Source of the DNA: an uncultured Parabacteroides sp.
GTDB taxonomy: Bacteria > Bacteroidota > Bacteroidia > Bacteroidales > Tannerellaceae
DNA length: 64,000 bases
Direction: 5' to 3'
Assembly (NCBI GenBank): GCA_900541965.1
Contig: UQLN01000002.1
Span: forward strand, 16,547 to 80,546
Numbering within the stretch: the stretch's first letter is position 1; every line of letters starts with the position of its first letter. Below, one piece after another: positions 16,223 to 56,497 of this stretch. The translations under genes and the position numbers were made by a program. The notes beneath the pieces are model-generated. The model did not search any database and had not been told where the DNA came from. It worked only from the letters and a program-made list of their open reading frames with translations.

Positions 16223-16244
16223 CAACAGGAAGAGTTAATAAATT

Positions 16245-17366: not shown

Positions 17367-17380
17367 AAAGTATTGAAAAG

Positions 17381-18466: not shown

Positions 18467-18490
18467 ACAGATTTCAATTAAATAAAGATT

Positions 18491-19500: not shown

Positions 19501-19506
19501 AAACAT

Positions 19507-19821: not shown

Positions 19822-19827
19822 TATCCT

Positions 19828-21756: not shown

Positions 21757-21769
21757 TAGATGACTCAAT

Positions 21770-23284: not shown

Positions 23285-23297
23285 CAGATAAAAATTC

Positions 23298-24719
23298 ATG
23301 ATTATGAGCCTCGAACTCTTTTCTATATTACGATTTGAATTAGTCGTTTGTCTCCTTATATTTATCCTGCTGGTGATGAAACTGGCGGATGCGGACAAAC
23401 ACCTCAAATCTTTTCTGATAACAGTAAATACATTGCTGTTTATCAATTTTGCGATAAGTTTCCTTCCTGTCGACATGGGCGTTTTATTCAAAGGCTTCTT
23501 CTTTTCTAACGACCTCATCGAAATGGAAAAAACAATGCTGAATCTGGGGGTTTTACTGATATCCCTGCTTTCCGGCAGATGGCTTCACAAACATGCAGAC
23601 TTATGCGTTGAATTTTACATCCTGATATTATGTAGTTTATTAGGAGCATTCCTGATGTTGTCGAGCGGACATATCCTGATGCTCTATCTGGGAATCGAAA
23701 TTTCCACCATACCCATCACCGCATTGTCCAATTTCAATAAGGAAGAACGGCGTTCCTCGGAAGCAGGTATTAAATTTATCCTGTCATCCGCTTTCTCCTC
23801 CGGCATCATGCTGTTCGGTATCTCTATGTTATATGGTGCATACGGCAATCTGAGTTTCAGTTTCCTGCATCTGAATCTGGAACCCAACCTATTGACAATT
23901 GTAGCGTTTGCATTTATGATGGGAGGTTTCTTCTTTAAAATGTCGGCAGTCCCGTTTCACCTGTGGACAGCCGATGTATACGAAGGCTCTCCGATCCCGG
24001 TTACCAGCTATTTGTCGGTAATTTCCAAAGGATCTATCATTTTCGTATTCGTTTCCATCCTGATGACCGTATTCCAGAATATGCATGTTGAATGGAAAGA
24101 AGTCATTACCGTCATCTCTATCCTGAGTATGACAGTTGGTAATCTGTTTGCCATGCGCCAACAGAACCTCAAACGGTTACTGGCATTCTCCTCCATCTCG
24201 CAAGTCGGATTTGTGCTGGTCGGTATTACAGGCAACAGCATTATGGGATTGGATTCCACACTGTACTTTATGTTGATTTACATGCTGAGCAATATCTGTT
24301 TCTTCGGAGTACTCAGTGTTGTTTCCGACTCGACAAAGAAAGAAGACCTTCGTTCATTCAAAGGTTTCTACCGGACTAATCCATTCCTTGCCCTGATGAT
24401 GGGAGTCAGCCTCTTCTCATTAGCAGGTGTTCCCCCCACTTCCGGCTTCTTCGGGAAATTGTTCCTGCTGGTATCTTCCATGGGAGACGAAATGTACGTA
24501 TTGGTTGGATTTGCCGGATTAAACCTAGTTCTTTCACTCTACAACTATCTGCGTATTGTGAAATGTATCTTCATTGATGAACCGGAAGAGCAGCTCTGTA
24601 TCGGCAAAAACCGGGTAGTATCGGCAACGCTTGCTTTCTGTTGCATAGCCATCTTAAGCATTGGATTTATTTCATCCGTATTCCAGTATATCGACTGGGC
24701 GGCACGGCAGATGATTTGA
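23298..24719 (+). CDS. nuoN: NADH-quinone oxidoreductase subunit N.
   Basis: 473-aa antiporter-like subunit (ND2 family): FHLWTADVYEGSPIPVTSYLSV. Confidence 0.85.
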   Translation: MIMSLELFSILRFELVVCLLIFILLVMKLADADKHLKSFLITVNTLLFINFAISFLPVDMGVLFKGFFFSNDLIEMEKTMLNLGVLLISLLSGRWLHKHADLCVEFYILILCSLLGAFLMLSSGHILMLYLGIEISTIPITALSNFNKEERRSSEAGIKFILSSAFSSGIMLFGISMLYGAYGNLSFSFLHLNLEPNLLTIVAFAFMMGGFFFKMSAVPFHLWTADVYEGSPIPVTSYLSVISKGSIIFVFVSILMTVFQNMHVEWKEVITVISILSMTVGNLFAMRQQNLKRLLAFSSISQVGFVLVGITGNSIMGLDSTLYFMLIYMLSNICFFGVLSVVSDSTKKEDLRSFKGFYRTNPFLALMMGVSLFSLAGVPPTSGFFGKLFLLVSSMGDEMYVLVGFAGLNLVLSLYNYLRIVKCIFIDEPEEQLCIGKNRVVSATLAFCCIAILSIGFISSVFQYIDWAARQMI

Positions 24720-30310: not shown

Positions 30311-30313
30311 AGA

Positions 30314-30445
30314 GTTGACAGTTGACAAGTGACAGTTGACAGTTCGCTTCCGGTATATAAACTGGTTGAAGCGGGAATAACTGTCAACTGTCACTTGTCA
30401 ACTGTCAACTACTACCTACTCCTGCCACTTGTCAATTATCAACTG
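30314..30445. repeat. Inverted-repeat element. Four tandem TGACAGT heptamers form the left arm. A conserved core follows (CTTCGCTTCCGGTATATAAACTGGTTGAAGCG). Four inverted heptamers (CTGTCAA) form the right arm.
   Basis: Left arm 30314-30342 is GTTGACAGTTGACAAGTGACAGTTGACAG. Right arm 30381-30409 is its perfect reverse complement. Additional partial heptamers lie downstream. A homologous element sits at 31941-32046. Confidence 0.85.
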
Positions 30446-30518: not shown

Positions 30519-31937
30519 ATGGTATCTTTATTTCCAACAGATTTGCCATACAAAGTGGCAGATATGAATCTGGTGGATTTCGGTCGCAAAGAGATTGAAA
30601 TCGCCGAACACGAAATGCCGGGTCTTATGGCTCTTCGCCAGAAATATGCAGACCAGAAACCGCTGAAAGGCGCGCGCATCACCGGCTCACTGCACATGAC
30701 TATCCAGACGGCAGTGTTAATCGAAACATTAGTTGCGTTGGGAGCAGATGTCCGTTGGGCAAGCTGCAACATCTTCTCCACACAGGACCATGCTGCGGCA
30801 GCTATTGCAGCAAGTGGAGTTCCTGTTTTTGCCTGGAAAGGTGAAACACTGGAAGAATACTGGTGGTGTACTGAAATGGCACTCCGTTTCCCCGGTGGCA
30901 AAGGACCGCATATGATTGTAGACGATGGTGGCGATGCCTCCCTGCTGATACATATGGGATACCGCGCAGAGAATGATGCAGAAACCATTAACCGTAAAGG
31001 CAGCAATCATGAAGAGCAAGTAATTCTGGATACGCTTCACCGCATTCTTGAGGAAGATAATGCACGCTGGCATCGTACGGTTGCTGAAATGAAAGGTGTT
31101 TCCGAAGAAACAACAACAGGCGTACACCGTTTGTACCAGATGATGGAAAGAGGCGAACTGCTGGTTCCCGCCATCAATGTAAACGACTCTGTTACAAAAT
31201 CCAAGTTTGACAACCTGTACGGTTGCCGCGAATCGTTGGCAGACGGTATCAAACGTGCTACAGATGTTATGATTGCAGGAAAAGTTGTTGTCGTTGCAGG
31301 ATACGGCGATGTAGGAAAAGGATGTTCACATTCCATGCGTTCATACGGAGCCCGTGTGTTGGTAACTGAAATTGACCCGATTTGTGCTTTACAGGCAGCC
31401 ATGGAAGGTTTTGAAGTTACAACGATGGAAGAAGCTGTGAAAGAAGGTAACATCTTCGTCACGACAACCGGAAACTGCGACATTATCACAATCGAGCATA
31501 TGTCACAGATGAAAGACCAGGCGATTGTTTGCAACATCGGTCACTTCGATAACGAAATACAGGTAGAAAAGTTGGTTAACTTCCCGAATATCAAACATAC
31601 CAATATCAAACCGCAGGTTGATAAATATACATTCCCGACAGGGAACTCTATCTTCTTGCTGGCAGAAGGTCGTTTGGTTAACCTGGGTTGTGCAACCGGC
31701 CACCCTTCTTTCGTAATGAGTAATTCTTTCACGAACCAAGTATTGGCACAGATGGATTTATGGACAATGCCTTATGAAATAGGTGTATATCGTCTGCCTA
31801 AACGTCTGGACGAAGAAGTTGCACGTCTCCACCTTGAACGTATCGGCGTAAAACTGAGCAAACTGACACAGAAACAGGCCGATTATATAGGTGTTCCTGT
31901 AGAAGGGCCCTATAAAGCGGACCACTACAGATACTAA
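30519..31937 (+). CDS. ahcY: Adenosylhomocysteinase (S-adenosyl-L-homocysteine hydrolase).
   Basis: 472 aa with a strong AhcY signature throughout: [10 protein letters not shown]..., the NAD-binding GYGDVGKGC, and the end ...HYRY. Confidence 0.95.
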
Positions 31938-31940
31938 TTC

Positions 31941-32046
31941 AGGTGACAGGTGACAATTGACAGGTGACAGTCAGGCTTCGCGTCCGATATACAAAATCGG
32001 TTGAAAGCTGAAGAATTGTCAACTGTCATTTGCTACTTGTCAACTG
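31941..32046. repeat. Second, more degenerate copy of the heptamer inverted-repeat element.
   Basis: Left arm GGTGACAGGTGACAATTGACAGGTGACAGT. Core CTTCGCGTCCGATATACAAAATCGGTTGAAAGC. Right arm TTGTCAACTGTCAtttgctaCTTGTCAACTG. Same orientation and the same 7-bp periodicity as the 30314 element. Confidence 0.8.
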
Positions 32047-32061
32047 CTAACCGATTTCGCG

Positions 32062-32853
32062 ATGCAGAAAAGACATTCCGACAGGGTTTTATACTTTAGG
32101 GAGCAAGCCTATACCACTCAAAAATACGTTATCCCTTTTATAGAAAAGCATCATCCAATAACAGCCGAAACCACAGTGCTTGAGATTGGGTGTGGCGAAG
32201 GGGGTAATATTCAACCATTTCTGGATTTAGGTTGCAAGGTAACCGGTATCGACCTCAATGGTGTACAAATAGAGAAAGCCAAAGATTTTTATGCCAACCA
32301 CCCTAATTACTTGAACCTTTCACTGATTTGCCGGGATATTTACCAGGTAACCGACCTGGATGAAACTTTCGATATTATCATTATTCGCGATGTCATCGAA
32401 CATATCCCCAACCAGGAAAGATTTCTTCCTTTTATTAAACGTTTTCTAAATCCCCGGGGTGTTATTTTTGTAGCATTTCCTCCCTGGCAAAACCCATTCG
32501 GAGGACATCAACAAATTTGCAGTAATAAGTATTTATCCCATCTCCCGTGGATACATTTGCTTCCTCGCAGTTTATATAAAAAATTGCTGGAATGGGGAGG
32601 TATAAATCCGAATGAACTATTGGAAATTAAGGATACCGGGATTTCCCTCGAACGCTATTTATCCATTGTAAACAAAGAACAATACAATATAAAAGAAGAG
32701 GTACTCTATTTCATCAATCCTAATTATGAAATAAAGTTCGGGCTCCGTCCCCGCGAATTATGGAAACTATTAAATATTCCCTATATTCGTAATTTCTATA
32801 CGACATGCGGATATTATTTATTAGACCTGAAAACAGAACAAAATGATTTATAG
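32062..32853 (+). CDS. Class I SAM-dependent methyltransferase.
   Basis: 263 aa with the SAM-binding motif VLEIGCGEGGNIQPFLDLGCKVTGIDL. Its 3' end overlaps the next gene by 11 nt. Confidence 0.7.
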   Translation: MQKRHSDRVLYFREQAYTTQKYVIPFIEKHHPITAETTVLEIGCGEGGNIQPFLDLGCKVTGIDLNGVQIEKAKDFYANHPNYLNLSLICRDIYQVTDLDETFDIIIIRDVIEHIPNQERFLPFIKRFLNPRGVIFVAFPPWQNPFGGHQQICSNKYLSHLPWIHLLPRSLYKKLLEWGGINPNELLEIKDTGISLERYLSIVNKEQYNIKEEVLYFINPNYEIKFGLRPRELWKLLNIPYIRNFYTTCGYYLLDLKTEQNDL

Positions 32854-33880
32854 GAGTAAAGCGCCATTCCGGCTGGGTATTGCAGGAGGAGGAACAGATG
32901 TTTCTCCTTATTCCGACATCTATGGAGGAGCCATACTGAATGTCACTATTAATTTATATGCCCATGCGACTATCCGCCCTTTGGACAACGGCAAAATCAG
33001 ATTTGTACATATAAACGATAATATAGTAGAAGAATTTGATGCAATAAGCCAGCTTCCCCTCGAAGGGCCTTTGGTATTGCAACATGGTATTTATAATTCC
33101 ATCGTTGCCCGGCACAATAACGGTAAACCACTCTCTTTTGAACTGATTACCAGTATGGACGTTCCTTCCGGTTCCGGGCTGGGAACTTCATCCACATTAG
33201 TCGTTTCCATCCTCGGTGCATTTACCGAATGGCTTAAACTGCCTCTCGGACGCTATGATATAGCTCATTATGCCTATGAAATAGAACGTATAGACCTGCA
33301 AATGGCTGGAGGGAAACAAGACCAGTATGCAGCCACTTTCGGAGGTGTCAATTTTATGGAGTTTCTGGAAAACGACCGCGTAATTGTAAATCCCCTGCGA
33401 ATTAATGATGATATTTTACAGGAATGGGCGATGAATACCGTCCTGTTTTATACAAACAAACAACGCTGTTCCTCTAAAATCATTGAAGAACAGGCAGAGA
33501 ATGTAAAGAGACAAAACCTGGACTCGCTGGAAGCCATGCACAATGTTAAGAAAGAGGCATTCCGTATGAAAAACTGCTTATTGCGTGACGAGTTATGGGA
33601 ATTAGGAAAAGCCCTGAACTCGAGCTGGAACAACAAAAAGAAAATGGCCCGTCATATCTCCAACGAGTTTATCGACCATATTTATGAAACGGCTATAGCC
33701 AATGGTGCTTTAGGCGGTAAAATCTCCGGAGCGGGAGGAGGAGGTTTTATGTTCTTCTATTGTCCCGGTAATACCTGTTACAAGGTTTCCGAGGCGTTGA
33801 CAAACCTCAATATCGGTAATGTAAAGTATTTCGAATTTTGCAAAAGAGGACTTATAACATGGACTATAAAGGAATCATAA
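32843..33880 (+). CDS. hddA: GHMP-family sugar kinase, probably D-glycero-alpha-D-manno-heptose 7-phosphate kinase.
   Basis: 345 aa with GHMP motifs (PSGSGLGTSSTLVVSILGA; GGKISGAGGGGFMFFY). The gene context holds gmhA, a nucleotidyltransferase and gmhB. Confidence 0.65.
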   Translation: MIYRSKAPFRLGIAGGGTDVSPYSDIYGGAILNVTINLYAHATIRPLDNGKIRFVHINDNIVEEFDAISQLPLEGPLVLQHGIYNSIVARHNNGKPLSFELITSMDVPSGSGLGTSSTLVVSILGAFTEWLKLPLGRYDIAHYAYEIERIDLQMAGGKQDQYAATFGGVNFMEFLENDRVIVNPLRINDDILQEWAMNTVLFYTNKQRCSSKIIEEQAENVKRQNLDSLEAMHNVKKEAFRMKNCLLRDELWELGKALNSSWNNKKKMARHISNEFIDHIYETAIANGALGGKISGAGGGGFMFFYCPGNTCYKVSEALTNLNIGNVKYFEFCKRGLITWTIKES

Positions 33881-34443
33881 AAGACAGGCTGTTACAGCAT
33901 CAGGAAATAATCCGGCAAATCATGGCCGATCCGCAGTTGCACACTGCAATTAATGACGCTGTAGAAACGATTATTACCTGTTTCAAATACGGTGGTAAAG
34001 TTTATTTTTGCGGAAACGGAGGCAGTGCCGCCGATGCCCAGCACCTTGCTGCTGAATTTTCCGGTAAATTTTATATCGACCGGAGAGTGCTGCCATCCGA
34101 AGCCTTGCATTGCAACACTTCATATCTGACTGCCGTAGGTAACGACTATTCATTCGATATTATTTATGCCCGCCTGATGTCCGGGCTTGGTAAACCGGGA
34201 GATGTATTAGTAGGTCTTTCTACTTCAGGGAACTCAACCAATATTGTCAAGGCCTTTGAGGTATGTAAAGAAAAAGGAATTACAACGATTGCCTTTACCG
34301 GCAGAAGCGGAGGAGAATTAAAATCCAAAGCAGGTATCCTGATTAATGTTCCTTCAAGCGACACACCACGCATACAAGAAGGGCATATCACTATCGGACA
34401 CATCATTTGTGAACTGGTTGAGGCAGCAATCTTTGATAAATAA
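33859..34443 (+). CDS. gmhA: SIS-domain phosphoheptose isomerase (sedoheptulose-7-phosphate isomerase).
   Basis: GmhA-like FCGNGGSAADAQHLAAEF and GLSTSGNSTNI. I chose the internal ATG (MDYKG) as the start, which leaves a 22-nt overlap with the upstream gene. Confidence 0.75.
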   Translation: MDYKGIIKDRLLQHQEIIRQIMADPQLHTAINDAVETIITCFKYGGKVYFCGNGGSAADAQHLAAEFSGKFYIDRRVLPSEALHCNTSYLTAVGNDYSFDIIYARLMSGLGKPGDVLVGLSTSGNSTNIVKAFEVCKEKGITTIAFTGRSGGELKSKAGILINVPSSDTPRIQEGHITIGHIICELVEAAIFDK

Positions 34444-34447
34444 GAAA

Positions 34448-35152
34448 ATGGAATGTATCATATTGGCAGGAGGAATGGGAACGCGTTTACAAAGCGTCGT
34501 CTCGGATGTTCCTAAATGTATGGCCCCGGTAGCCGGCAGACCATTCCTCCATTATTTATTGGAAACATTGGAGCAAAACGGCTTCACCCATGTCATATTA
34601 TCACTCGGATACAAACACGAAGTGATAGGAGAATGGATAAAAGGATTTCAAACGTCCCTGCAAATCAGTTCTGTCATAGAGAAACAGCCTTTAGGAACCG
34701 GCGGAGCTGTAAAGTTCGCTTTATCCCAAGCGAACCAAGAAGAAGTCTTCATTTTAAACGGGGATACATTCCTGGGAATTGATTATCCTGAAATGCTTGC
34801 AATACACCGGGATACACAGGCAAAAGCGACTCTTGCCTTGAAAAAAATGACAAATTTCGACCGCTACGGACTGGTTGAAACAGATTGTCAAACCCATAAA
34901 ATCAATGCTTTTAGAGAGAAGCAATTCTGTGAATCCGGATTAATAAACGGAGGGGTGTACCTGATAAACAGGAAAGAGCTACGGGAATATCCGGAAAAAT
35001 TCTCTTTAGAAAAAGACTTTTTTGAAACAATAGTGCCATCCGGTGGATTATCAGGATACATATCCGATGGGTATTTTATTGATATTGGCATACCTGCTGA
35101 TTATTCACAGGCTCAAATCGATTTCAGGGATGGGAAATATAAAACATTATAA
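34448..35152 (+). CDS. hddC: Sugar-1-phosphate nucleotidyltransferase, probably D-glycero-alpha-D-manno-heptose-1-phosphate guanylyltransferase.
   Basis: Starts MECIILAGGMGTRL (the nucleotidyltransferase G-loop). The start sits 5 nt after the gmhA stop. Confidence 0.7.
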   Translation: MECIILAGGMGTRLQSVVSDVPKCMAPVAGRPFLHYLLETLEQNGFTHVILSLGYKHEVIGEWIKGFQTSLQISSVIEKQPLGTGGAVKFALSQANQEEVFILNGDTFLGIDYPEMLAIHRDTQAKATLALKKMTNFDRYGLVETDCQTHKINAFREKQFCESGLINGGVYLINRKELREYPEKFSLEKDFFETIVPSGGLSGYISDGYFIDIGIPADYSQAQIDFRDGKYKTL

Positions 35153-35687
35153 TACACTGTTTCTGGACCGCGACGGGGTTATCAACCGGCAACGTCCGAA
35201 TGATTATGTGAAATCACCTGAAGAGTTTATCTTTATCGAAGGGGTAACTGAGGCTCTGAAATTGCTTGCACCACTTTTCTCCCATATTCTGATTGTGACT
35301 AATCAACGGGGCGTAGGACGCGGGCTGATGACAGAAGAAAATTTGGGAACTATCCATCGCCAAATGCTTGAAACCATACAAAACAACGGAGGAAGAATAG
35401 ATAAAATATATGTTTGTACAGAAACAGACTCCCATAATCCAAACAGAAAACCGAATCCAGGCATGGCTATGCAGGCACTACAGGATTTCCCCGATATTGA
35501 CTTTTCCCAAAGTTTACTTGCAGGAGACAGCCTGTCCGATATTGAATTTGCCAACAACGCACATATTCCGGCTGTCTTAATTGGCAATAAATATAAGGAA
35601 GAAGAACTTGCCGGGCTAAGAATTTACAGACATTATCCGGATTTGCTTACCTTTGCAACTGAAATTAATAAGGAATTACATTTATGA
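35130..35687 (+). CDS. gmhB: HAD-superfamily D,D-heptose 1,7-bisphosphate phosphatase.
   Basis: Carries LFLDRDGVIN (HAD motif I) and a GmhB-like length. The start is at the internal MGNIKHYN, overlapping hddC. Confidence 0.7.
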   Translation: MGNIKHYNTLFLDRDGVINRQRPNDYVKSPEEFIFIEGVTEALKLLAPLFSHILIVTNQRGVGRGLMTEENLGTIHRQMLETIQNNGGRIDKIYVCTETDSHNPNRKPNPGMAMQALQDFPDIDFSQSLLAGDSLSDIEFANNAHIPAVLIGNKYKEEELAGLRIYRHYPDLLTFATEINKELHL

Positions 35688-36802
35688 AAATTGCATATCT
35701 TTCTACTTTCTATCCTTTTCGCGGAGGAATTGCACAATTCAACGCTAATTTATATGAAGCACTCGGAAAAGAACATGAAGTACTTCCTTTTACCTTCAAA
35801 AGACAATATCCGGATTTCCTCTTCCCGGGAAAGACTCAATATGTAACAGCAGAAGACAATGCGGTTATCATAAACAGCATCCCTGTATTGGACACTGCCA
35901 ACCCTTTGACTTATCTCAGCGCTGCCAACCGCATAGCCAAAGAAAAGCCGGATGTGCTGGTTATGAAATACTGGATGTCTTATTTCGCTCCTTCCTTGGG
36001 TACAGTAGCACACAAGCTTAAAAAACAAGGATGTAAAGTAATTACTGTACTGGATAACGTAATCCCCCACGAACAGAAGTTCTTTGATAAACCGCTGACT
36101 ACATGGTTTCTGAAACAAAATAGCGGTTTTATTGCAATGAGTGAGTCCGTACAAAAGGATTTACTGGCTCTGCGTCCGGATGCACCGCATCTGTTAAAAC
36201 CCCATCCTTTATATAATCACTTCGGTGATAAAGTAGAGGTTACCGAAGCCAGAAAAACATTAGGCATAGATACGGATAAAAAGACCCTTTTGTTCTTCGG
36301 GCTGATACGCGACTATAAAGGTTTGGATTTATTGATCGAAGCAGTAAACCGGTTGGATGACAGTTACCAACTAATCATTGCCGGAGAAAGCTATGGCAGC
36401 TTCGATAAGTATACCGAGCAAATAAAAAATATCCGCAATCCGGAACGTGTCAAAGTATTCAACCGCTATATCAGCGACAATGAAGTTCCTTTATTTTTCT
36501 CTGCGGCAGATGTCTGCGTTTTGCCCTATCGCTCGGCAACCCAAAGCGGCATTACTTCTATTGCTTTCCATTTCGAACTGCCTCTGATTGCAACTAACAC
36601 TGGTGGGCTAAGTGAAAACATTGAAAAACCGGGAGCCGGACTCATGGTACCGGAAATAAATGCAGGTGACATAGCTAAAACTATCCAAGCTTTTTATAAC
36701 AAGAATCGTCAGGTCTTCGTCTCCAATATTCAAAAGGAGAAGGCCCTGTTAACCTGGGAGAATTTTTCAGAAGCGCTTATCTCTTTCTCTAAACAACTCT
36801 AA
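35684..36802 (+). CDS. Family 4 (GT-B) glycosyltransferase.
   Basis: 372 aa. The C-terminal GT1/GT4 domain includes FFGLIRDYKGLDLLIEA and the EX7E-like region SATQSGITSIAFHFELPLIATNTGGLSENIEK. Its start overlaps the gmhB stop (ATGA). Confidence 0.8.
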   Translation: MKIAYLSTFYPFRGGIAQFNANLYEALGKEHEVLPFTFKRQYPDFLFPGKTQYVTAEDNAVIINSIPVLDTANPLTYLSAANRIAKEKPDVLVMKYWMSYFAPSLGTVAHKLKKQGCKVITVLDNVIPHEQKFFDKPLTTWFLKQNSGFIAMSESVQKDLLALRPDAPHLLKPHPLYNHFGDKVEVTEARKTLGIDTDKKTLLFFGLIRDYKGLDLLIEAVNRLDDSYQLIIAGESYGSFDKYTEQIKNIRNPERVKVFNRYISDNEVPLFFSAADVCVLPYRSATQSGITSIAFHFELPLIATNTGGLSENIEKPGAGLMVPEINAGDIAKTIQAFYNKNRQVFVSNIQKEKALLTWENFSEALISFSKQL

Positions 36803-36828: not shown

Positions 36829-36898
36829 CACTATCTGCACAAAACGTATTCGTTGCCTGTGTATATAATTCTCATAATACACACAGGCAACGAATACG
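36829..36898. terminator. Long perfect hairpin (~27-bp arms), acting as a terminator for the heptose operon.
   Basis: ACAAAACGTATTCGTTGCCTGTGTAT -11 nt- ATACACACAGGCAACGAATACGTTTTGT. Confidence 0.55.
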
Positions 36899-37569
36899 TT
36901 TTGTACAATAATATTTGATTCTAATCCAGTAGAGTTAATAACTTATCATTTTTGTTTGGTCCATACCTCATTTATTCATAGTTAGCGGGTAGAAAAAAGA
37001 GACTGTAAATACGATAAAATCACCATAGTTTTAGTAGAACTCATTACTATTTTTGTTTTTTCATGCATAAATCGACTATCTAAGACTGCTTATACCTTAC
37101 GAAAACCTAACAGTGTTTATCGATTGTTAAATAATTCATCGCGTAAAATTATATAATTTATCCAAATATAAAAGTTAAAGACGGTATTTTTTTTGCTTTT
37201 TGCTCAAAAATATATTTGAAAAGGATAAAAAAAGCATCTATAAGAGCTAAAGTAATTATTTCATGGGGTTAAGAATAATCATATTGCCACTACCTAAAAA
37301 ATCATTCTGATTCATTTTACAGACTTATCGAGTCATTTATCTACATTAGATTTAGTGTACATGCACTTTTAAGGAAATTACCACCATTCTTATAAATACA
37401 ATATTTTCAAATATTGAGTTAAACACCCAAAATCTATAATTTCTTTTAAGATCTCGACTATGACAATATTTTACAAATATCCCTCTTTTTTTTACTTAGT
37501 TCTACTAAGACTATGGCATATGAGACGTTGCATTATTTCAATTTAGTCGAATCTATAAGAATGTGTATT

Positions 37570-40500
37570 ATGATGAAAAAGTTAACTTTTATCTTGCTTT
37601 TCTTCTTTGTGGGGATTAGTATGATTGTTGCCCAAACTAAGAAAGTAGAGGGTACGGTTACTTCCGCAGACGACGGATTACCAGTTATCGGAGCATCCAT
37701 CGTTGTAAAAGGAACAACGGTCGGAACAGTAACAGATACCGATGGTAGATTTACTCTGGAAGTGCCGGATGGAGCCAAAATTCTCCAGATTTCTTTTGTA
37801 GGTATGAACACACAAGATGTGGCAGTAAAACCTAAAATTAATGTCGTTCTTCAATCCGACACTCAGGATTTGGAAGAAGTTGTAGTTACAGCACAAGGAC
37901 TTACCCGTCAACAGAAATCTTTGGGTTATGCCACCCAACAACTAAAAGCAGACGAACTGGTTCAAACCCGCCAGACTGACTTAAACAATGCATTGGTTGG
38001 TAAAGTTTCCGGTGTACGTTTCTTAGGTGGTTCCGGTGCAAAATTCGATGCCGGTAAAATTGTATTACGTGGTACCAGCGGATTAACAGATGCAGGTGGT
38101 AGCGAACCTATTTATGTAGTAGACGGTGTCATTGCAAATGCCAACTCCATCAATATGGACGACGTTGAATCCGTAAATGTACTGAAAGGCCCGGCCGCAA
38201 CTGCATTGTATGGTGCACGTGGAGGTAACGGTGCAATTATTATCACAACCAAAGGACTTACTGGTGATAAGATGGAATTTAATGTAAGCCACACGCTTTC
38301 ATTTGAAACTCCGTATATCCATGCAAAACTTCAAGACCAATACGGTGGTGGATATTATGGTGCCGATGGAGAATTGGATGTATTCAATTATGACCCGAGC
38401 ATACATCCGGCTTATTTGCAACAAATGAATGGAAAAGCTTACTATGATTTTGGTGATGACGCCAGTTGGGGACCCAAATTTGACGGACGTGAATATGCTC
38501 CCTGGTATTCATGGGATCCTACTCATCCTTTATTCGGTCAGACTGAAAAATGGGAAAACCGTATGAATCTGAAAGATTTGTTCAACACAGGTGTGTCCAA
38601 CACAACAAACCTTTCATTTGCCCGTTCCGGCAAAGATTATATGTCTCGCATTTCTTTTACAAACTCAGCCCGTACAGGTATTACCCCGAACAGTGACGCT
38701 ATCCGTCGTTTCTTATCTGTGAAAACACAGTTCAAACCGGTAGACCGCTTAACTGTCAATTTGGATTATAAATATACCTATCGTAAGAATCATAACGCAG
38801 CACAGGAAGGTTATGGTGGAACCGGTAATGCACTTTATTCATACATCCAATGGGGACATACCAATGTCGATCTAAGCCAGTTAAAAGATTTCCGCCGTCC
38901 TGACGGTACATTCTATACTTGGAATATCAACGGACCGACAAACCTGACTCCGGCATATCATGAAAACCCATATGCTTTGTTTGAAACAATCAACAGAGAT
39001 GAAATATACCAGTGGAATGTTTTCAATGCTGATGCATCTTTAGACATTATCGGAAACTTAAAAGCAGGTATCCGTGTAAACGGAAACATCCGTAATTATT
39101 TCTATGATTTATCTGTACCTTTCAACATCTTGGGTGAAACACCAAGACTGGAAGAAGAACAGAACTCTATCATCGATATCCAGACACAAGGACGTTTGAC
39201 ATGGAATGACCATTTCATCGACAATCGTCTTTCAATCGATGCTGCTTTATTCCTTGAAGCCAGAAATTATTCCTATAAACGTACGTTAGCAAAAACAACA
39301 GACGGTTTGTTCCAGGATGAATTCTTCAGTACAGCAGGTTCAGTTGGTAAACCGGAAGGAACAACTATAAAAACATACCAGAAAGACCGCAGTATTTTCG
39401 GAACAGGAACAATCGGATGGGATAACACCTACTATCTGGATTTCTCATTACGTAATGACTGGACATCTACCTTGCACCCGGACAAAAACAGTTATTTATA
39501 CGGAGGTGTTTCTGTTGCTGCAATCGCAAGTAACTGGATTAAAAACGCTGAATGGCTGGACTTTTGGAAACTGCGTGCATCTATGGCACAAGTTGGTTCT
39601 ACGATGTCTGCTTATAACGTATATCCTACTTATAAAGTAAAAGACGGTAGTGGTAATCTGATAAAATACGGTTCTTTCTCTAATATGTGGTACGATCCGA
39701 ACCTGAAAGATCCTTATATCAAACCGACTATCTCAACGTCCTATGAAGTAGGTACGGAATTCCGTATGTTCAAGAACCGTTTCTGGGGAGACTTCAACTT
39801 CTATAACCGTGATTCCAAAAACCAGATTATTAATGTAAACACGACTCCTGCCAGTGGTTATACTTCCCGCAAATTGAATGCTGGTTTAATCCGCAACCGT
39901 GGTATCGAAATCTCTTTGGGAGGTGCACCTATACAGACAAAAGACTGGACATGGGAAATCAATGCTAATATTTCAAAGAATAGCAATACATTGGAAGAAC
40001 TTGCCGAAGGTGTAGATGAGTATCGTATTACTTACTATGGTTTAGGAGCCTCTTATGTTTATTCTTATGCAGAAGTCGGCGAACCGATCGGTGTAATCCG
40101 TGGTTCTTCCTGGACTAAAGACCCGAACGGAAATATCATTATGAAAAAATCTGGCAATCCGTCAATAGGAGAATATTATCCGGTACCGAAAACAAACTCT
40201 TTGGATGTATTAGGCAATGTACAACCAGACTTCACCGGAGGTTTCTCTACCTCTCTTCGCTTCAAAGATTTCCGCCTGGCAGCTTCATTTGACTTCCAGA
40301 TTGGAGGTAGCCTGGTTTCCTTCACTAACTTAAACGGTAATGGTTCCGGTTTATTAGAAGAGACTGCCGGCCTAAATGATAAAGGCAATCCTATTCGTAA
40401 TTCCGTTGCCGATGGTGGTGGTGTAAGAGTTGATGGTGTTGTAGACAATGGAGACGGAACATATACTCCGGTAAGTTCATATGTAGACGCACAATACTAT

Positions 40501-40791
40501 TACCAATCTCTCCGTTCCACAATTTTGGAAGGATCCGTATATGATGCAAGTTATTTGAAAATGCGTGAGTTGTCTATTACTTATGATGTACCGGCTCCTT
40601 TCTTACAGAGAACACGTACAGGCATCAAGAAAGCAAGCGTTTCATTTGTTGCACAGAACCCCTGGTTGATTTATTCCGGAATTCCTAATGTTGACCCATC
40701 TGAAGCAGGTGCCGCATATTGGAACTATATCGAAACCGGCCAGGCAGCTTCTACCCGCTCATTCGGATGCACAGTAAGTCTTACATTTTAA
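37570..40791 (+). CDS. susC: SusC/RagA-family TonB-linked outer membrane transporter of polysaccharide utilisation locus 2.
   Basis: The start is at MMKKLTFILLFFFVGISMIVAQ. An N-terminal regulatory domain (GTVTSADDGLPVIGASIVVKGTTVGTVTDTDGRFTL) and a plug (VVDGVIANANSINMDDVESVNVLKGPAATALYGARGGNGAIIITTK) follow. The protein ends in an aromatic residue (SLTF). Confidence 0.9.
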   Translation: MMKKLTFILLFFFVGISMIVAQTKKVEGTVTSADDGLPVIGASIVVKGTTVGTVTDTDGRFTLEVPDGAKILQISFVGMNTQDVAVKPKINVVLQSDTQDLEEVVVTAQGLTRQQKSLGYATQQLKADELVQTRQTDLNNALVGKVSGVRFLGGSGAKFDAGKIVLRGTSGLTDAGGSEPIYVVDGVIANANSINMDDVESVNVLKGPAATALYGARGGNGAIIITTKGLTGDKMEFNVSHTLSFETPYIHAKLQDQYGGGYYGADGELDVFNYDPSIHPAYLQQMNGKAYYDFGDDASWGPKFDGREYAPWYSWDPTHPLFGQTEKWENRMNLKDLFNTGVSNTTNLSFARSGKDYMSRISFTNSARTGITPNSDAIRRFLSVKTQFKPVDRLTVNLDYKYTYRKNHNAAQEGYGGTGNALYSYIQWGHTNVDLSQLKDFRRPDGTFYTWNINGPTNLTPAYHENPYALFETINRDEIYQWNVFNADASLDIIGNLKAGIRVNGNIRNYFYDLSVPFNILGETPRLEEEQNSIIDIQTQGRLTWNDHFIDNRLSIDAALFLEARNYSYKRTLAKTTDGLFQDEFFSTAGSVGKPEGTTIKTYQKDRSIFGTGTIGWDNTYYLDFSLRNDWTSTLHPDKNSYLYGGVSVAAIASNWIKNAEWLDFWKLRASMAQVGSTMSAYNVYPTYKVKDGSGNLIKYGSFSNMWYDPNLKDPYIKPTISTSYEVGTEFRMFKNRFWGDFNFYNRDSKNQIINVNTTPASGYTSRKLNAGLIRNRGIEISLGGAPIQTKDWTWEINANISKNSNTLEELAEGVDEYRITYYGLGASYVYSYAEVGEPIGVIRGSSWTKDPNGNIIMKKSGNPSIGEYYPVPKTNSLDVLGNVQPDFTGGFSTSLRFKDFRLAASFDFQIGGSLVSFTNLNGNGSGLLEETAGLNDKGNPIRNSVADGGGVRVDGVVDNGDGTYTPVSSYVDAQYYYQSLRSTILEGSVYDASYLKMRELSITYDVPAPFLQRTRTGIKKASVSFVAQNPWLIYSGIPNVDPSEAGAAYWNYIETGQAASTRSFGCTVSLTF

Positions 40792-40811
40792 AATTAAGGA
40801 GAATTACAGAT

Positions 40812-42293
40812 ATGAATAAAATTAAATTAATGATATTAGCTTTAGCCGGAATGATAACTGTTACCGGCTGTGGAGATTTTGGTGATACGAATGTGGATCC
40901 GAATAACCCATCCAAGCCTGATACACGCTTTCTGTTTTCTTATGCGTGCAAAAAGGTTCCCACTCTGTCTATGGTCAGCACATTTAACCCATGGACACAA
41001 ATTTATCCTCAATATGTTTCAGAAGGTAAATCAATCCAGTTTACAAACTTTTCACAGCCGCAGTTTGCAACTACAAGTTACTATACTGAGACACTGCGTA
41101 ACCTGGAAGGTATCATTAAACTAAACACAGACGAAGAAACAAAAAATGAGTCGTATGTTGTTCAGCTCGGGTCGGCAGCCAATCAGATTGCCGCTTGTAG
41201 AACATTGCGTGCGCTCTTTTATATGAGTTTGACCGATGCTCAGGGCATGGTTGCCTATTCGGAAGCATTAAAGGGTGATGATGCCAACTTTACACCTAAA
41301 TACGATTCACAGGAATCTATCTATACAGACCTGGATAAAGAATTAACTGAAGCATATGCACAGTTTGACGCATCCAGTTCATTAGATAAGAATTTCGATA
41401 TTTTATATGCCGGCAATATCTCTAACTGGAAAAAGTTAAATGCCTCTATCCGTATGATGATGGCAATCAAACTGAGCGATGTTGCACCCGGAGTAGGTAA
41501 AGAACGTTTTGCAAAGGCATATACAGACGGCGGCATGACAGACAATGACGAAATGCTGGTTTACAAATATCTGCAAGAAACAGCCAATCAAAACCCGATG
41601 TATGACAACATGGTTGTTTCCGGACGTAAAGATTATGCTCCTTCAAAAACAATCCTCGATCAGCTATTGGCCTACAACGACCCGCGTATTCACGCTTATG
41701 CCGTTCCAAACTCTCTGGGAGAGTATAAAGGCGTTCCTTTCGGGCTTATTCAGGCAGACGTTACAAATTATAAAGATTGTGCAGCTTTTGCTGAACGTTA
41801 TTACCAACAGAATTCACCGGTTGTTGTAATCTCTCCGTCGCATATCCTGCTTATCGAAGCAGAAGCCGCTGTACGTGGCTGGATCAATGCCGATCCTGCT
41901 GATTTATATAAAGCCGGCATTACAGCTTCTTTCGCTCAATATGATGATATCGACGAACTGAAAAATCCGGAAGAAGCAGCTGAAACTTATTGTGCTCAAG
42001 CTGATATCAAATTTGAAGGTACCGATGCCCAGAAAATTGAAAAAATTGCTATGCAACGTTGGTTGGCAAACTTCATGCAGAACGGTTTCGAAGCATGGTC
42101 TGACTGGAGACGTCTGAATGTTCCGAAGTTAAAAGTAGGTCCGAACGCATTGGTAGACCATATACCCTACCGCATGACTTACAGCGCACCGGATTATAAT
42201 ACCAACATGGATAATTATAATGCAGCTGTAGCAGAGCAAGGACCAGACAATATCGAAACTCGCGTATGGTGGGATGTAGCTCCCAATAACTAA
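40812..42293 (+). CDS. susD: SusD/RagB-family outer membrane lipoprotein.
   Basis: The start is at MNKIKLMILALAGMITVTGC (lipobox). It lies 20 nt downstream of SusC. About 490 aa, W/Y-rich. Confidence 0.8.
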   Translation: MNKIKLMILALAGMITVTGCGDFGDTNVDPNNPSKPDTRFLFSYACKKVPTLSMVSTFNPWTQIYPQYVSEGKSIQFTNFSQPQFATTSYYTETLRNLEGIIKLNTDEETKNESYVVQLGSAANQIAACRTLRALFYMSLTDAQGMVAYSEALKGDDANFTPKYDSQESIYTDLDKELTEAYAQFDASSSLDKNFDILYAGNISNWKKLNASIRMMMAIKLSDVAPGVGKERFAKAYTDGGMTDNDEMLVYKYLQETANQNPMYDNMVVSGRKDYAPSKTILDQLLAYNDPRIHAYAVPNSLGEYKGVPFGLIQADVTNYKDCAAFAERYYQQNSPVVVISPSHILLIEAEAAVRGWINADPADLYKAGITASFAQYDDIDELKNPEEAAETYCAQADIKFEGTDAQKIEKIAMQRWLANFMQNGFEAWSDWRRLNVPKLKVGPNALVDHIPYRMTYSAPDYNTNMDNYNAAVAEQGPDNIETRVWWDVAPNN

Positions 42294-42374
42294 AGAATGT
42301 CATTAATTTATGAGATATATAACCAAAACATGACATTTTAAACACATTTTTTAAACACATTTTTAGACACACTT

Positions 42375-42410
42375 AATCTGGACCAGTAGAGAATACTCGT
42401 CCAGATTTTT
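42375..42410 (+). terminator. Rho-independent terminator after susD of locus 2.
   Basis: AATCTGGACcagtagagaatactcGTCCAGATTTTTTT. Confidence 0.75.
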
Positions 42411-42562
42411 TTCCTTTTCAAAAAGAGCAACGCCCCCAAGTCTGCCAAGACTTCTACTATAATAAATGCTTATAATACAATTATATCACCTACAAAAACA
42501 GATATATGGAGATAGCCATCGATAAATGTGTGGATTCTTACGTTACTAAAAATAAACTTATC

Positions 42563-43072
42563 ATGAAAATATTATTTATTATCATTTTTGTAAGTCTATT
42601 CAATATAGTAACACACGCACAAAAGTCCCAGTATTTTTTAATAGAGAAAAATACTCATTCTGTTTACATATTACCACAAAAACTATATCTACCAGAAATA
42701 ATCGGTCCATTAGACAACAGGTTTACCGTGAAAAAAGATTTAAAACCGCTAATGGATAGCTGCTCATTATATTTAAATGAAGCATTCGAAGGCATTGAAC
42801 TTAATGCAGAAGATTTAAAGGCATTCCATCATACAACATTTTCTTTATTTTTTGATAAAAATATAGACATAATATACTATAGATTCATTATTATAGGTCC
42901 AACATATGCTAAAAACATATTAAAATGGGAAAAGCAATTACATAGATTTACACAAAAAATAAACTCGTTAAATCTCAAACCTTATATCGAAATACAGAAT
43001 AAATCTTTATTCAAACGTGTAGAATTAAGTACTGGAGATTTAGGAAGGAAATTCAAAAATAAAAAGGAATAA
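42563..43072 (+). CDS. Secreted protein of a novel tandemly duplicated family (copy 1, single domain).
   Basis: Signal peptide MKILFIIIFVSLFNIVTHAQ. Conserved motifs shared with the downstream copies: KSQYFLI, LKPLMDSCSL, DLKAFHHTTFS, ILKWEKQLH+F+QK and LKPYIEI. Confidence 0.6.
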   Translation: MKILFIIIFVSLFNIVTHAQKSQYFLIEKNTHSVYILPQKLYLPEIIGPLDNRFTVKKDLKPLMDSCSLYLNEAFEGIELNAEDLKAFHHTTFSLFFDKNIDIIYYRFIIIGPTYAKNILKWEKQLHRFTQKINSLNLKPYIEIQNKSLFKRVELSTGDLGRKFKNKKE

Positions 43073-43111
43073 CAAATCATCAATAATTATTAACCTACAA
43101 ATAACAAAATC

Positions 43112-44089
43112 ATGAAAACATTATTTATTATCACTTTTATAAGTCTATTCAGCATACAAACATATGCACAAAAGTCGCAGTACTTCTTAATTAAGGAAGA
43201 TTCCTCAGAAATAGTACCCAAAGACCTTCATTTACCAGAGATAACAGGTCCGTCAGATAACAGTGTTACTCTAAAAGGGAATCTAAAACCGCTAATGGAT
43301 AGTTGCTCATTATTTTTAAATGAAGCATTTGATGGCATTGAACTTAATACAGAAGATTTAAAAGCATTCCATCATACAACATTTTCTTTCATCTTTGATA
43401 AAGATGGAAAAATGATATACTATAGATACACTGTTATAGGTTCGAAATATACTAAAGATATATTAAAATGGGAAAAACGATTATATAAATTTGCACAAAA
43501 GATGAAATCGCTCAATCTTAAACCTTATATCGAAATACGGGACGAATCGTTATTCAAACGTGGATCATTTAATATTGGAGATTTAGGAAGAAAATTTCAA
43601 AACAAAAATAAAGGACAAACATCATCTTATTTTATAATTGAAAAATCAAAATCAGATACAATCTTGTATTTAAAACCGAAAGACCTTGTATTAAAGGAGA
43701 TCGACTCATCCCATGACAATCGATACTGGTTTATAAATCCCAAAGAAATGAAAATAGTATTAGATTCGTTGATACAACAATCTTTTGAAGGATTAAATCT
43801 AAAAGATATATGCCTATTGGATCATTTAAATTTCGTTGCTTATTTTGATAATCAATACAATTTGATATATTATCAATACTATTTTCCCAAAAAGCATGCA
43901 GATAAACTAAAGAATATAGATAAACAATTGTATAAATTCACTCAAATGCTCAGACAAATAGACATTAAGTCTTATATCAAAATACATAATGAGAAGTCAT
44001 TCAAACAAGCAAGTTTTGGCATTATCAACTTTAAAGATAAATACGAAAATAAATATTCTAATAAACCTAATGGTTCGTTAAATAATTGA
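43112..44089 (+). CDS. Secreted protein of the same family (copy 2), made of two tandem domains.
   Basis: 325 aa with the signal peptide MKTLFIITFISLFSIQTYAQ. Residues ~20-165 and ~170-325 each repeat the family motifs (YF(L/I)I...F(E/D)G(I/L)(E/N)L...LKAFHHTTF / HLNFVAYF...IYY(R/Q)Y...LYKF(A/T)Q...(K/S)YI(E/K)I). Confidence 0.6.
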   Translation: MKTLFIITFISLFSIQTYAQKSQYFLIKEDSSEIVPKDLHLPEITGPSDNSVTLKGNLKPLMDSCSLFLNEAFDGIELNTEDLKAFHHTTFSFIFDKDGKMIYYRYTVIGSKYTKDILKWEKRLYKFAQKMKSLNLKPYIEIRDESLFKRGSFNIGDLGRKFQNKNKGQTSSYFIIEKSKSDTILYLKPKDLVLKEIDSSHDNRYWFINPKEMKIVLDSLIQQSFEGLNLKDICLLDHLNFVAYFDNQYNLIYYQYYFPKKHADKLKNIDKQLYKFTQMLRQIDIKSYIKIHNEKSFKQASFGIINFKDKYENKYSNKPNGSLNN

Positions 44090-44188
44090 TTAAAATCTGA
44101 TAATACATCCTCTATAAATATCATTTATTAGCATATAATATATCACTAAAAAAACAGACAAATAGAAAAACACAAATTAAAACTCATT

Positions 44189-51326: not shown

Positions 51327-51327
51327 A

Positions 51328-52266: not shown

Positions 52267-52268
52267 GC

Positions 52269-54139: not shown

Positions 54140-54143
54140 ACGT

Positions 54144-56491: not shown

Positions 56492-56497
56492 AAAGCA

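Follow-up and report, generated by a model that had tools for sequence, protein, structure and literature searches.

We describe a four-gene set, predicted to make GDP-heptose, that has been inserted directly 5' of a resident GT4 glycosyltransferase gene in a gut Parabacteroides, and we lean, by a modest amount, towards the explanation that this glycosyltransferase uses the product on an acceptor of the cell envelope. The window, i.e., the whole stretch of 64,000 nucleotides that was analysed, carries hddA, gmhA, hddC and gmhB contiguously at 32843-35687, with all four enzyme families clustered. The pathway type is already known; the gut Parabacteroides set adjoins a GT4 gene that close relatives keep without the sugar genes. 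Our evidence comes from the genes present, their homologies and motifs, and statistics of linkage; from these we infer the enzyme specificities as well as the donor and the acceptor of the GT4 enzyme.

Organization of the locus

The ORF listing of the window places six co-directional reading frames on the + strand at 32062-36802 (Table 1), the same limits as in the initial annotation. With start codons supported by alignments of homologues and by independent gene calls from metagenomes, the successive junctions from methyltransferase (MT)/hddA to gmhB/GT4 are -11, -22, +4, -23 and -4 nt. The six genes therefore overlap or abut as the initial annotation had described, the widest overlap being 23 nt, and their spacing is compatible with translational coupling.

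Table 1. Features of the predicted heptose locus and its surroundings (positions in the window)
Feature	Position	Strand	Description
Heptamer-repeat (GTTGACA-like) hairpin	30313-30444	.	Between acyl-CoA synthetase gene and ahcY
ahcY (adenosylhomocysteinase)	30519-31937	+	TIGR00936
Second, imperfect heptamer-repeat hairpin copy	31940-32051	.	Between ahcY and MT
Methyltransferase (MT)	32062-32853	+	Class I SAM methyltransferase; Methyltransf_11/23/25 matches
hddA	32843-33880	+	GHMP kinase; HddA-type D-glycero-D-manno-heptose-7-phosphate kinase (predicted)
gmhA	33859-34443	+	SIS domain; sedoheptulose-7-phosphate isomerase (predicted)
hddC	34448-35152	+	NTP_transferase; HddC-type heptose-1-phosphate guanylyltransferase (predicted)
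gmhB	35130-35687	+	HAD-IIIA; GmhB-type heptose-1,7-bisphosphate 7-phosphatase (predicted)
GT4	35684-36802	+	Glycos_transf_1; GT-B glycosyltransferase, uncharacterised Bacteroidota-wide subfamily
Long hairpin 3' of operon	36836-36907	.	34 nt past GT4 stop codon
Wzx	55052-56491		lfg-like locus, separate from operon

Strong hairpins lie on both sides of the six-gene block and argue for operon boundaries. The hairpin following GT4 (34-nt arms, 91% complementary, 4-nt loop; RNA fold -44.6 kcal/mol, z -10.1) is probably the 3' end of the operon, and the imperfect repeat copy in front of the block (-45 kcal/mol, z -5.2), which ends about 10-15 nt 5' of the MT start codon, may be a terminator or attenuator of ahcY transcripts. 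Together with the copy upstream of ahcY (32-nt arms, 100% complementary; -67.7 kcal/mol, z -10.9) it brackets ahcY, as had been noted earlier. The upstream copy matched no real family in the Rfam comparison and is context, outside the pathway. The heptamer-repeat pattern has 13 matches in the window versus 0.39 expected.

The ORF list and a Pfam scan revealed no flippase or ABC transporter, polymerase or initiating transferase within 32062-36802, which agrees with the initial annotation, and the block is not a capsule, S-layer or O-antigen assembly locus. Since the operon has no assembly and export genes, its product must feed a glycoconjugate made elsewhere, as was also proposed. The destination suggested for it, at 45-58 kb, consists of a YfhO-like gene and an lfg-like protein O-glycosylation locus (50-58 kb) beside metG; apart from the synteny of the YfhO gene, which is family-level, nothing ties this region to heptose, and the suggestion found no further support.

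The predicted GDP-heptose enzymes

The assignment of the four middle genes to GDP-heptose synthesis agrees with their closest solved homologues and with a motif in HddC, all four proteins scoring below the NCBIfam equivalog cut-offs. For each of them a heptose-specific model is the top NCBIfam match: NF049969 for HddA (399 bits over the full length, cut-off 600), TIGR00441 for GmhA (189.8 bits, cut-off 209), NF049965 for HddC (217.5 bits, cut-off 300) and PRK08942 for GmhB (127.5 bits, cut-off 178; TIGR01656 and TIGR01662 exceed their cut-offs). Because the top matches are heptose-specific and full length, we consider the proteins divergent orthologues rather than members of another family. 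Their identities to solved heptose-enzyme structures are 36-50%.

HddA has GHMP_kinases_N/C domains and the motif PSGSGLGTS, and is most similar to PDB 3K85 (E = 1e-100, 50% identity), followed by WcbL 4USK and the C. jejuni HddA-type 4N3O (E up to 1e-93); it is thus a GHMP-type HddA, the predicted maker of an alpha-1-phosphate, and not a PfkB-type HldE. GmhA is 47% identical (E = 4e-56) to the phosphoheptose isomerase PDB 2XBL, with 2X3Y also close. HddC is 38% identical (E = 1e-45) to the Y. pseudotuberculosis enzyme (YpHddC; PDB 5XHW/6JQ8), its loop ILSLGYK aligns with ILSLSYK of YpHddC, and its residues 78-87 read EKQPLGTGGA, matching EXXPLGTGGA, the guanine-binding (GTP-selecting) motif that includes Glu80 in YpHddC (PMC6981941). 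GmhB contains the motifs DRDGV and GDSLSD, matches the GmhB structures 4PNH, 3L8H and 3L8E, and shares 52% identity with its counterpart in a Bacteroides-type CPS locus, where HddA is 99% identical to PDB 3K85. The GmhB of B. thetaiotaomicron is reported to favour the alpha anomer (Wang 2010, as cited in PMC8204981).

Judged from these similarities, the enzymes would act as follows: 1) GmhA would convert sedoheptulose-7-P to D-glycero-D-manno-heptose-7-P, 2) HddA would phosphorylate C1, giving the alpha-1,7-bisphosphate, 3) GmhB would remove the 7-phosphate and 4) HddC would couple the alpha-1-phosphate with GTP. Pfam scans of most ORFs of at least 150 aa, with metagenome calls for the nuo genes, found no HldE- or HldD-like ORF in the window; ORFs resembling SusC/SusD (7305-12032) and a pair in the nuo region (18491-19500) stayed without annotation. 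Among the annotated ORFs, therefore, the earlier distinction from the ADP-heptose route with its hldE and hldD genes holds, a GHMP kinase being present instead.

Linkage between the cassette and GT4

Linkage was counted in two ways, using informative loci only: in loci found through hddA and in loci found through GT4. A GT4 orthologue adjoins the cassette, on either side, in 65 of the 74 (88%) loci found through hddA, and hddA is present in only 7 of the 48 loci found through GT4. The glycosyltransferase gene follows gmhB in Tannerellaceae and other Bacteroidales and immediately precedes hddA in Paludibacteraceae, Prolixibacteraceae, Chitinophagales and Sphingobacteriaceae; in some Chitinophagales only GT4 and hddA are adjacent. 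The pairing is consequently seen in two gene orders and with at least three unrelated flanks, namely ahcY, MATE and lpxB/surE (the last divergent from GT4 in Prolixibacter).

These counts have to be weighed against the possible but rather doubtful explanation that GT4 is a housekeeping envelope enzyme with a non-heptose donor, with GDP-heptose going to another transferase whose gene lies elsewhere (a capsule locus, the lfg-like O-glycan locus and a GT2/YfhO system are examples); the two would then be adjacent because they share a pathway or because the site favours insertion, and not as a pairing of donor and enzyme. Such an enzyme would fit the 41 of 48 GT4 loci that have no heptose genes, and near-identical relatives that are separated by a clean four-gene indel directly 5' of GT4 (2.8 kb in the pair L029/L099, where GT4 is still 85% identical). 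It would also fit the GT4 alignment, in which no column distinguishes cassette-linked from cassette-less members, the cassettes of P. goldsteinii, P. gordonii, P. segnis and P. leei, where GT2 (beside YfhO) replaces GT4, and the Bacteroides-type CPS locus, whose 3K85-type cassette is followed by a glycosyltransferase with no detectable sequence similarity to that of the window. Against it stand the 88% adjacency and the 4-nt overlap of gmhB and GT4, and without functional coupling one can hardly account for the repetition of the pairing in two gene orders and unrelated flanks.

GT4 orthologues at 81-85% identity occur both with and without the cassette. Because of this, and because GT4 is mostly found without heptose genes, it is not a dedicated part of the heptose operon, and we rejected it as a dedicated heptosyltransferase. 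Cassette-less orthologues have a GT9 gene immediately upstream in 13 loci and bamA-uppS-...-ompH upstream in about 30-37 loci; the divergent lpxB/surE of Prolixibacter adds to this envelope context. From the linkage, the indel and these envelope neighbours we conclude that GT4 is a resident, widely conserved Bacteroidota envelope glycosyltransferase, and it is the probable, though unproven, consumer of GDP-heptose. The earlier suggestion that GT4 transfers the heptose of the operon is accordingly upheld in that the linkage is non-random, and weakened by the many GT4 loci that have no heptose genes.

Properties and predicted role of GT4

The GT4 protein has a Glycos_transf_1 C-terminal domain (PF00534, 74 bits versus a cut-off of 26) and, in its AF2 model (pLDDT 91.9), the two-Rossmann GT-B fold; no specific model matched in the NCBIfam search, and there is no match to Glyco_transf_9 (PF01075), so it is not a GT9 enzyme like WaaC/WaaF. 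Family GT4 is a retaining family in the CAZy classification. Both glutamates of its canonical EX7E motif are replaced, in the alignment to SPS 6KIH as well as across the subfamily, the aligned positions reading PY(R/K)SATQSG...(F/Y)HF(E/D/N)xP, which counts against a heptose-transferring GT4.

Foldseek neighbours include GlgM, MshA, sucrose-phosphate synthase (SPS), BshA, PimA and WaaG, most of the top-ranked GlgM, MshA, BshA and PimA chains giving TM 0.70-0.77. That the nearest of them (GlgM, MshA, SPS, BshA, LmbT and a tetrahydrobiopterin glucosyltransferase) use small soluble acceptors counts against an envelope heptose and would speak for a soluble heptoside or mannoside (a compatible solute or cofactor-like glycoside), as does the operon's lack of membrane or export genes. 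We nevertheless consider this product very unlikely: the neighbours are only 14-18% identical, PimA, WaaG and PglA follow close behind in the list, GT9 and bamA/ompH genes lie beside cassette-less orthologues, and a conserved hydrophobic loop, QYPxFLFPGKTQY, would suit interfacial binding.

In the explanation that we prefer, GT4, whose gene overlaps gmhB, most likely takes GDP-heptose and would transfer D,D-heptose, in alpha linkage, to an envelope acceptor that is conserved and exposed at the cytoplasmic face; the LPS/LOS core or some other lipid-linked glycan is the most plausible candidate. Where relatives have no cassette, it would presumably work on a related donor, e.g., GDP-mannose. That one enzyme family could serve either mannose or heptose is made plausible by heptose-less LPS cores, in which alpha-mannose takes the place of heptose on Kdo; an example is Rhizobium LpcC, a GDP-mannose-dependent GT4 that, by description, resembles the window enzyme in family and would resemble its predicted activity in using a GDP-activated manno-configured sugar and in acting on the LPS core. 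The characterised LPS cores that one review describes for B. vulgatus, B. thetaiotaomicron, B. eggerthii, P. dorei and Segatella copri carry rhamnose or mannose on Kdo, not heptose (PMC12890309), and these Bacteroides/Phocaeicola and Segatella structures count against heptose in the LPS core.

The methyltransferase and ahcY

In the initial annotation the six genes were regarded as a single dedicated unit for the synthesis and transfer of an O-methyl-heptose, ahcY clearing the SAH by-product. The 11-nt overlap of MT and hddA and the six co-directional genes between hairpins are consistent with such a unit, and the order MT-cassette-GT4 is repeated in seven other loci (e.g., L008, L015, L020, L093 and P. 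pacaensis L090). In contrast, of the 28 ahcY-adjacent loci just 7 have MT and 21 do not, five are ahcY-GT4 with no cassette, ahcY adjoins GT4 without either MT or cassette in L101 and L162-L167, and in L104 GT4 comes straight after MT, the cassette being absent. Orthologues of MT (57-59% and 65% identity) are found in surroundings free of heptose genes, namely following aspS, gltX or mdh or next to a kdsB-like gene. The NCBIfam search gave only sub-threshold UbiG-like matches to MT, and its best matches are generic class I enzymes, none pointing specifically to a known sugar O-methyltransferase (a glucose O-MT reached only E = 3e-4); a role for MT as a heptose O-methyltransferase is unsupported.

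The ahcY gene itself is well identified (TIGR00936, 635 bits versus a cut-off of 497.6) and ends 124 nt upstream of MT. It is adjacent in Tannerellaceae regardless of MT or even of the cassette; it is a syntenic neighbour whose functional tie to the operon is unsupported, and the adjacency is family-level synteny. With MT orthologues in housekeeping contexts and ahcY synteny mostly lacking MT, the ideas of an O-methyl-heptose and of a functional meaning of the ahcY placement are therefore unsupported, and the dedicated unit as a whole is improbable. In the preferred explanation MT and ahcY would be neighbours by synteny, MT being co-transcribed in this lineage.

Comparison with known systems

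Known GDP-heptose systems include the capsules of Campylobacter jejuni (Cj1423-1425) and Burkholderia pseudomallei (WcbL, WcbM, WcbN, GmhA) and the O-antigen of Yersinia pseudotuberculosis. The window set has in common with them the four enzyme families with heptose-specific best matches, a GHMP kinase instead of HldE, and the guanine-binding motif of HddC. Unlike them, it lies outside any capsule, S-layer or O-antigen locus, lacks a dehydratase, epimerase or reductase for modifying the heptose, and is paired with a GT4 family absent from those systems. The ADP-heptose/GT9 route to the LPS core shares the GmhA and GmhB steps, and GT9 genes lie beside cassette-less GT4 orthologues in 13 loci; the window differs from it in the GHMP-type kinase, the HddC-type nucleotidyltransferase, the use of GT4 rather than GT9 and the absence of HldE/HldD among the ORFs scanned. 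The Bacteroides-type capsule locus has the same order hddA-gmhA-hddC-gmhB, likewise followed by a glycosyltransferase gene that overlaps gmhB by 4 nt, and its GmhB has the same Cys-poor loop. In contrast to the window set, that cassette sits in a classical Wzx/Wza/Wzc/WbaP capsule locus, and the two HddA proteins share just 50% identity.

Organization of the operon

The segment 32062–36802 contains six co-directional ORFs, and a check of the ORFs, their limits, and their direction confirms the layout proposed in the initial annotation. Start codons were chosen from alignments to solved homologues and from independent gene calls in six metagenome contigs, in which HddA is 100% identical and the neighboring proteins are 99–100% identical. 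The junctions from the methyltransferase gene (MT) through hddA, gmhA, hddC, and gmhB to the glycosyltransferase gene GT4 measure, in order, -11, -22, +4, -23, and -4 nt. The host is a Parabacteroides: the MT product shares 99% identity with a Parabacteroides sp. APC149_11_2_Y6 protein, and HddA finds its best matches among species-representative genomes in P. goldsteinii and P. gordonii (86–87% identity).

Table. Features of the window discussed in the text
Feature	Position	Strand	Description
nuo operon	15234–24719		NADH:quinone oxidoreductase
Heptamer-repeat (GTTGACA-like) hairpin	30313–30444		5' side of ahcY; predicted fold -67.7 kcal/mol, z -10.9
ahcY	30519–31937		124 nt upstream of operon
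Heptamer-repeat hairpin	31940–32051		3' side of ahcY; predicted fold -45 kcal/mol, z -5.2
MT	32062–32853		Class I SAM methyltransferase
hddA	32843–33880		HddA kinase; best NCBIfam match NF049969
gmhA	33859–34443		GmhA isomerase; best NCBIfam match TIGR00441
hddC	34448–35152		HddC nucleotidyltransferase; best NCBIfam match NF049965
gmhB	35130–35687		GmhB phosphatase; best NCBIfam match PRK08942
GT4	35684–36802		Glycos_transf_1 GT-B protein
SusC/SusD pair and three paralogous hypothetical genes	37513–44710		Hypothetical proteins of 188, 325, and 173 aa
YfhO-like gene	45052–47556	-	Membrane protein, 834 aa
Glyco_trans_1_4 gene	47661–48758	+	Divergent from YfhO-like gene
Glycan locus	50379–58707	-	GT10, GT2, GT11, GT2, Wzx flippase, FkbM-type methyltransferase, Ugd (UDP-glucose dehydrogenase)
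metG	59290–61356		Adjoins glycan locus

The predicted GDP-heptose pathway

Aneurinibacillus, Campylobacter, Burkholderia, and Yersinia all have a well-characterized GDP-heptose pathway, and single B. thetaiotaomicron enzymes have been studied as well. The assignment of the four middle genes (hddA-gmhA-hddC-gmhB, hereafter the cassette) to this pathway, made originally by inspection, is supported by the fact that the best NCBIfam match of each gene is a heptose-specific model, by the nearest solved structures, which in all four cases are heptose enzymes, and by a guanine-binding motif in HddC. The NCBIfam scores are 399 bits for HddA over its full length (cut-off 600), 217 bits for HddC (cut-off 300), 190 bits for GmhA (cut-off 209), and 127 bits for GmhB (cut-off 178). 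Because all four fall below the curated cut-offs, we regard the enzymes as divergent orthologues and infer their activities. Among solved structures, HddA matches 3K85 (50% identity), B. pseudomallei WcbL, and 4N3O with E = 1e-100 to 1e-93; HddC matches Y. pseudotuberculosis HddC (E = 1e-45, 38% identity); GmhA matches the phosphoheptose isomerases 2XBL and 2X3Y (E = 4e-56, 47% identity); and GmhB matches 4PNH, 3L8H, and 3L8E. The HddC motif EKQPLGTGGA is of the EXXPLGTGGA type; in the structure of YpHddC with GMPPN, the glutamate of this motif (Glu80) makes a hydrogen bond to guanine (PMC6981941). Catalytic motifs are intact in GmhB (DRDGV, GDSLSD) and HddA (PSGSGLGTS). GmhB also shares 52% identity with its counterpart in a capsule locus of the Bacteroides type; for the B. 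thetaiotaomicron enzyme, a preference for the alpha-anomer is reported (Wang 2010, as cited in PMC8204981). No HldE- or HldD-like ORF turned up when most ORFs of at least 150 aa in the window were scanned with Pfam.

Linkage of the cassette to a conserved glycosyltransferase

The GT4 protein has a confident AlphaFold model (pLDDT 91.9). An NCBIfam scan placed it in no specific family and its sequence similarity to PDB entries is weak; its Foldseek neighbors share 14–18% identity, with GlgM, MshA, sucrose-phosphate synthase, and BshA ahead of PimA, PglA, and WaaG. Its family carries strongly conserved motifs, namely P(F/L/Y)RGG, QYPxFLFPGKTQY, DNxIPHE, HPLYxxFG, LLFFGxIRxYKGLD, and PY(K/R)SATQSG, and lacks the canonical EX7E glutamates. 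The Glyco_trans_1_4 gene of the window was tested as a paralogue of GT4 and rejected.

The association between the cassette and GT4 was assessed from both sides. The hddA-side scan sampled each species by a single genome and retained 80 loci, 74 of them informative, and a GT4 orthologue adjoins the cassette in 65 of these 74. It lies 3' of gmhB in Tannerellaceae and other Bacteroidales (53–85% identity) and directly 5' of hddA in Paludibacteraceae, Prolixibacteraceae, Chitinophagales, and Sphingobacteriaceae (37–44% identity), the adjacency being limited to GT4-hddA in some Chitinophagales. In Prolixibacter, surE-lpxB and the GT4-hddA unit run in divergent directions. The GT4-side scan of metagenome contigs likewise kept 80 loci, and hddA is present in only 7 of the 48 that were informative. 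The cassette-less GT4 orthologues (52–62% identity) occupy two recurrent neighborhoods: a GT9 gene stands directly 5' of GT4 in 13 loci, and bamA-uppS-NAD kinase-pdxJ-ompH lies upstream in about 30–37 loci.

Asymmetric linkage of this kind would be expected if a module that supplies a precursor is coupled to the enzyme that uses it. We read GT4 as a resident, conserved, envelope-associated glycosyltransferase rather than a dedicated component of the operon, and the cassette as an accessory supply module that is almost always docked beside it. The original suggestion that GT4 transfers the heptose stands in part: the 65/74 linkage makes GT4 the probable consumer, a role that the linkage does not prove, and the 7/48 count speaks against its being a dedicated part of the operon.

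The presence of the cassette is patchy on the GT4 tree, and some close relatives differ in little else. One comparison locus, L029, reads RsgA-MATE-hddA-gmhA-hddC-gmhB-GT4 and another, L099, reads RsgA-MATE-GT4; their GT4s are 85% identical, the flanking proteins are mostly 85–99% identical (one truncated match at 78%), and in the DNA alignment the four cassette genes form a clean gap. Similar presence and absence between ahcY and GT4 is seen in L095 versus L101 (GT4s 81% identical) and L014 versus L162 (71%). The group of P. goldsteinii, P. gordonii, P. segnis, and P. leei carries the cassette, and in place of GT4 it has a convergent GT2 that adjoins a YfhO-like gene. The cassette of the 3K85 type has the same gene order as that of the window but differs in its setting, which is a classical Wzx/WbaP/Wza/Wzc capsule locus where the next glycosyltransferase has no detectable similarity to GT4.

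Several features of individual loci were also noted. The GT9 gene beside GT4 (L112, L115, L128, L133, and nine other metagenome loci) belongs to the heptosyltransferase family, and the GT9 of these GT9-GT4 pairs has a Cys-rich N-terminal extension (FDCKYFRGGIPCKPN...CGNCSYY); a few such loci have a lone GmhB-like HAD phosphatase about 3 kb away. A nitroreductase-family gene separates hddA and gmhA in about eight loci (L054, L048, L060, and related Prolixibacteraceae).

The methyltransferase and ahcY

It had been proposed that the operon makes an O-methyl-heptose, and a link to the adjacent ahcY, which clears the SAH formed by methylation, had been hinted at. Both ideas are without comparative support. 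MT is a generic class I SAM methyltransferase whose orthologues (57–65% identity) occur in unrelated contexts: after gltX (in Paludibacter), aspS, or mdh, or divergent from a kdsB-like gene. Among 28 ahcY-adjacent loci, MT is present in only 7, and ahcY is followed by GT4 without MT or cassette in 5. At one locus (L104) MT is followed directly by GT4 and the cassette is absent, so that the cassette appears to lie between two resident genes. The order MT-cassette-GT4 recurs in a subset of Tannerellaceae, which makes co-transcription of MT likely in this lineage.

Possible destination of the heptose

Where GT4 is kept and the cassette is absent, the transferase would use another donor, unless heptose genes are located elsewhere in the genome; GDP-mannose is the obvious candidate. 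No alignment column separates cassette-linked from cassette-less GT4s as a signature of donor specificity. A broader proposal, which we consider rather unlikely, is that the phylum-wide Bacteroidota GT4 subfamily (QYPxFLFPGKTQY, DNxIPHE, PY(K/R)SATQSG; no EX7E) adds the manno-configured sugar to a conserved glycan of the envelope, probably the inner core of LPS/LOS, and that the portable GDP-heptose cassette decides, among closely related Bacteroidales of the gut, whether this sugar is mannose or D,D-heptose. If so, there would be a natural on/off polymorphism for heptose in the LPS of a group whose LPS is believed to lack heptose. A 2026 review describes LPS cores of Bacteroides/Phocaeicola and Segatella copri with rhamnose or mannose on Kdo, not heptose, and Parabacteroides LPS is structurally undefined (PMC12890309); a 2026 probe study notes that the status of heptose in B. 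thetaiotaomicron is unresolved (PMC13417296). Glycoconjugates that bear heptose are not known to have been described from gut Bacteroidales, and our literature searches returned nothing positive on heptose in Bacteroides, Parabacteroides, or Bacteroidetes glycans.

With the LPS core as the target, the polymorphism would mean that strains differ in an abundant gut molecule of immunological relevance; with any other target, the finding would be a correctly recognized sugar-nucleotide operon and no more. Across Bacteroidota, the genes for a complete GDP-heptose pathway are conserved next to one glycosyltransferase in particular, and the on/off polymorphism of the cassette beside this conserved, uncharacterized GT4 is a useful comparative lead. 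The candidate transferase and the naturally occurring pairs of close relatives with and without the cassette offer handles on the destination of the heptose, for which a mass shift of 30 Da per residue is predicted between heptose and hexose.

Surrounding loci and intergenic hairpins

A glycan assembled at the 45–58 kb locus had been suggested as a possible recipient of the heptose; nothing specific ties the genes at 50.4–58.7 kb to it. Their fucosyltransferases are alpha-1,3-FucT-like (GT10) and alpha-1,2-FucT-like (GT11), and we take the locus to resemble the Bacteroides lfg locus for general protein O-glycosylation, which likewise lies beside metG. The YfhO-like gene converges on the operon end in most Tannerellaceae; in this window the SusC/SusD pair and the three hypothetical genes, which are paralogous and low in GC (37.5–44.7 kb), are inserted between it and GT4. 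This insert has very low GC (29–30% at 42–45 kb) and no Pfam matches, and its 325-aa hypothetical protein seems to contain the domain of the paralogues twice in tandem. In the P. goldsteinii group the YfhO-like gene is paired with the GT2 that replaces GT4, an arrangement that could represent a polyprenol-phosphate-sugar/GT-C route. A link between YfhO and heptose beyond Tannerellaceae was rejected, as no YfhO-like gene turned up within 7 kb in taxa farther away.

The nuo operon and the region to its left (852–12032), with a hybrid two-component-like sensor (Reg_prop/Y_Y_Y/HATPase_c matches), a TonB-dependent receptor, and SusC/SusD-like ORFs (7305–12032), are ordinary Bacteroidales content.

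A scan for sigma-70 promoters, a model that does not apply to Bacteroidota promoters, gave no more sites than in shuffled sequences, and the region around ahcY and the operon, scanned against Rfam for riboswitches and known RNAs, yielded nothing beyond miRNA-hairpin artefacts below threshold. On the 3' side of the GT4 stop codon lies a hairpin whose arms are 34 nt long. The heptamer pattern of the hairpins flanking ahcY has 13 matches in the window versus 0.39 expected. These tandem arrays (GTTGACA/GTGACAG) form very stable intergenic hairpins and could be terminators or a REP-like element class. Similar arrays are found in L070 (1041–1087, 4894–4908, 6126) and L080 (5076–5108), where they are intergenic and adjoin GT4-hddA genes of unrelated rumen Bacteroidales.
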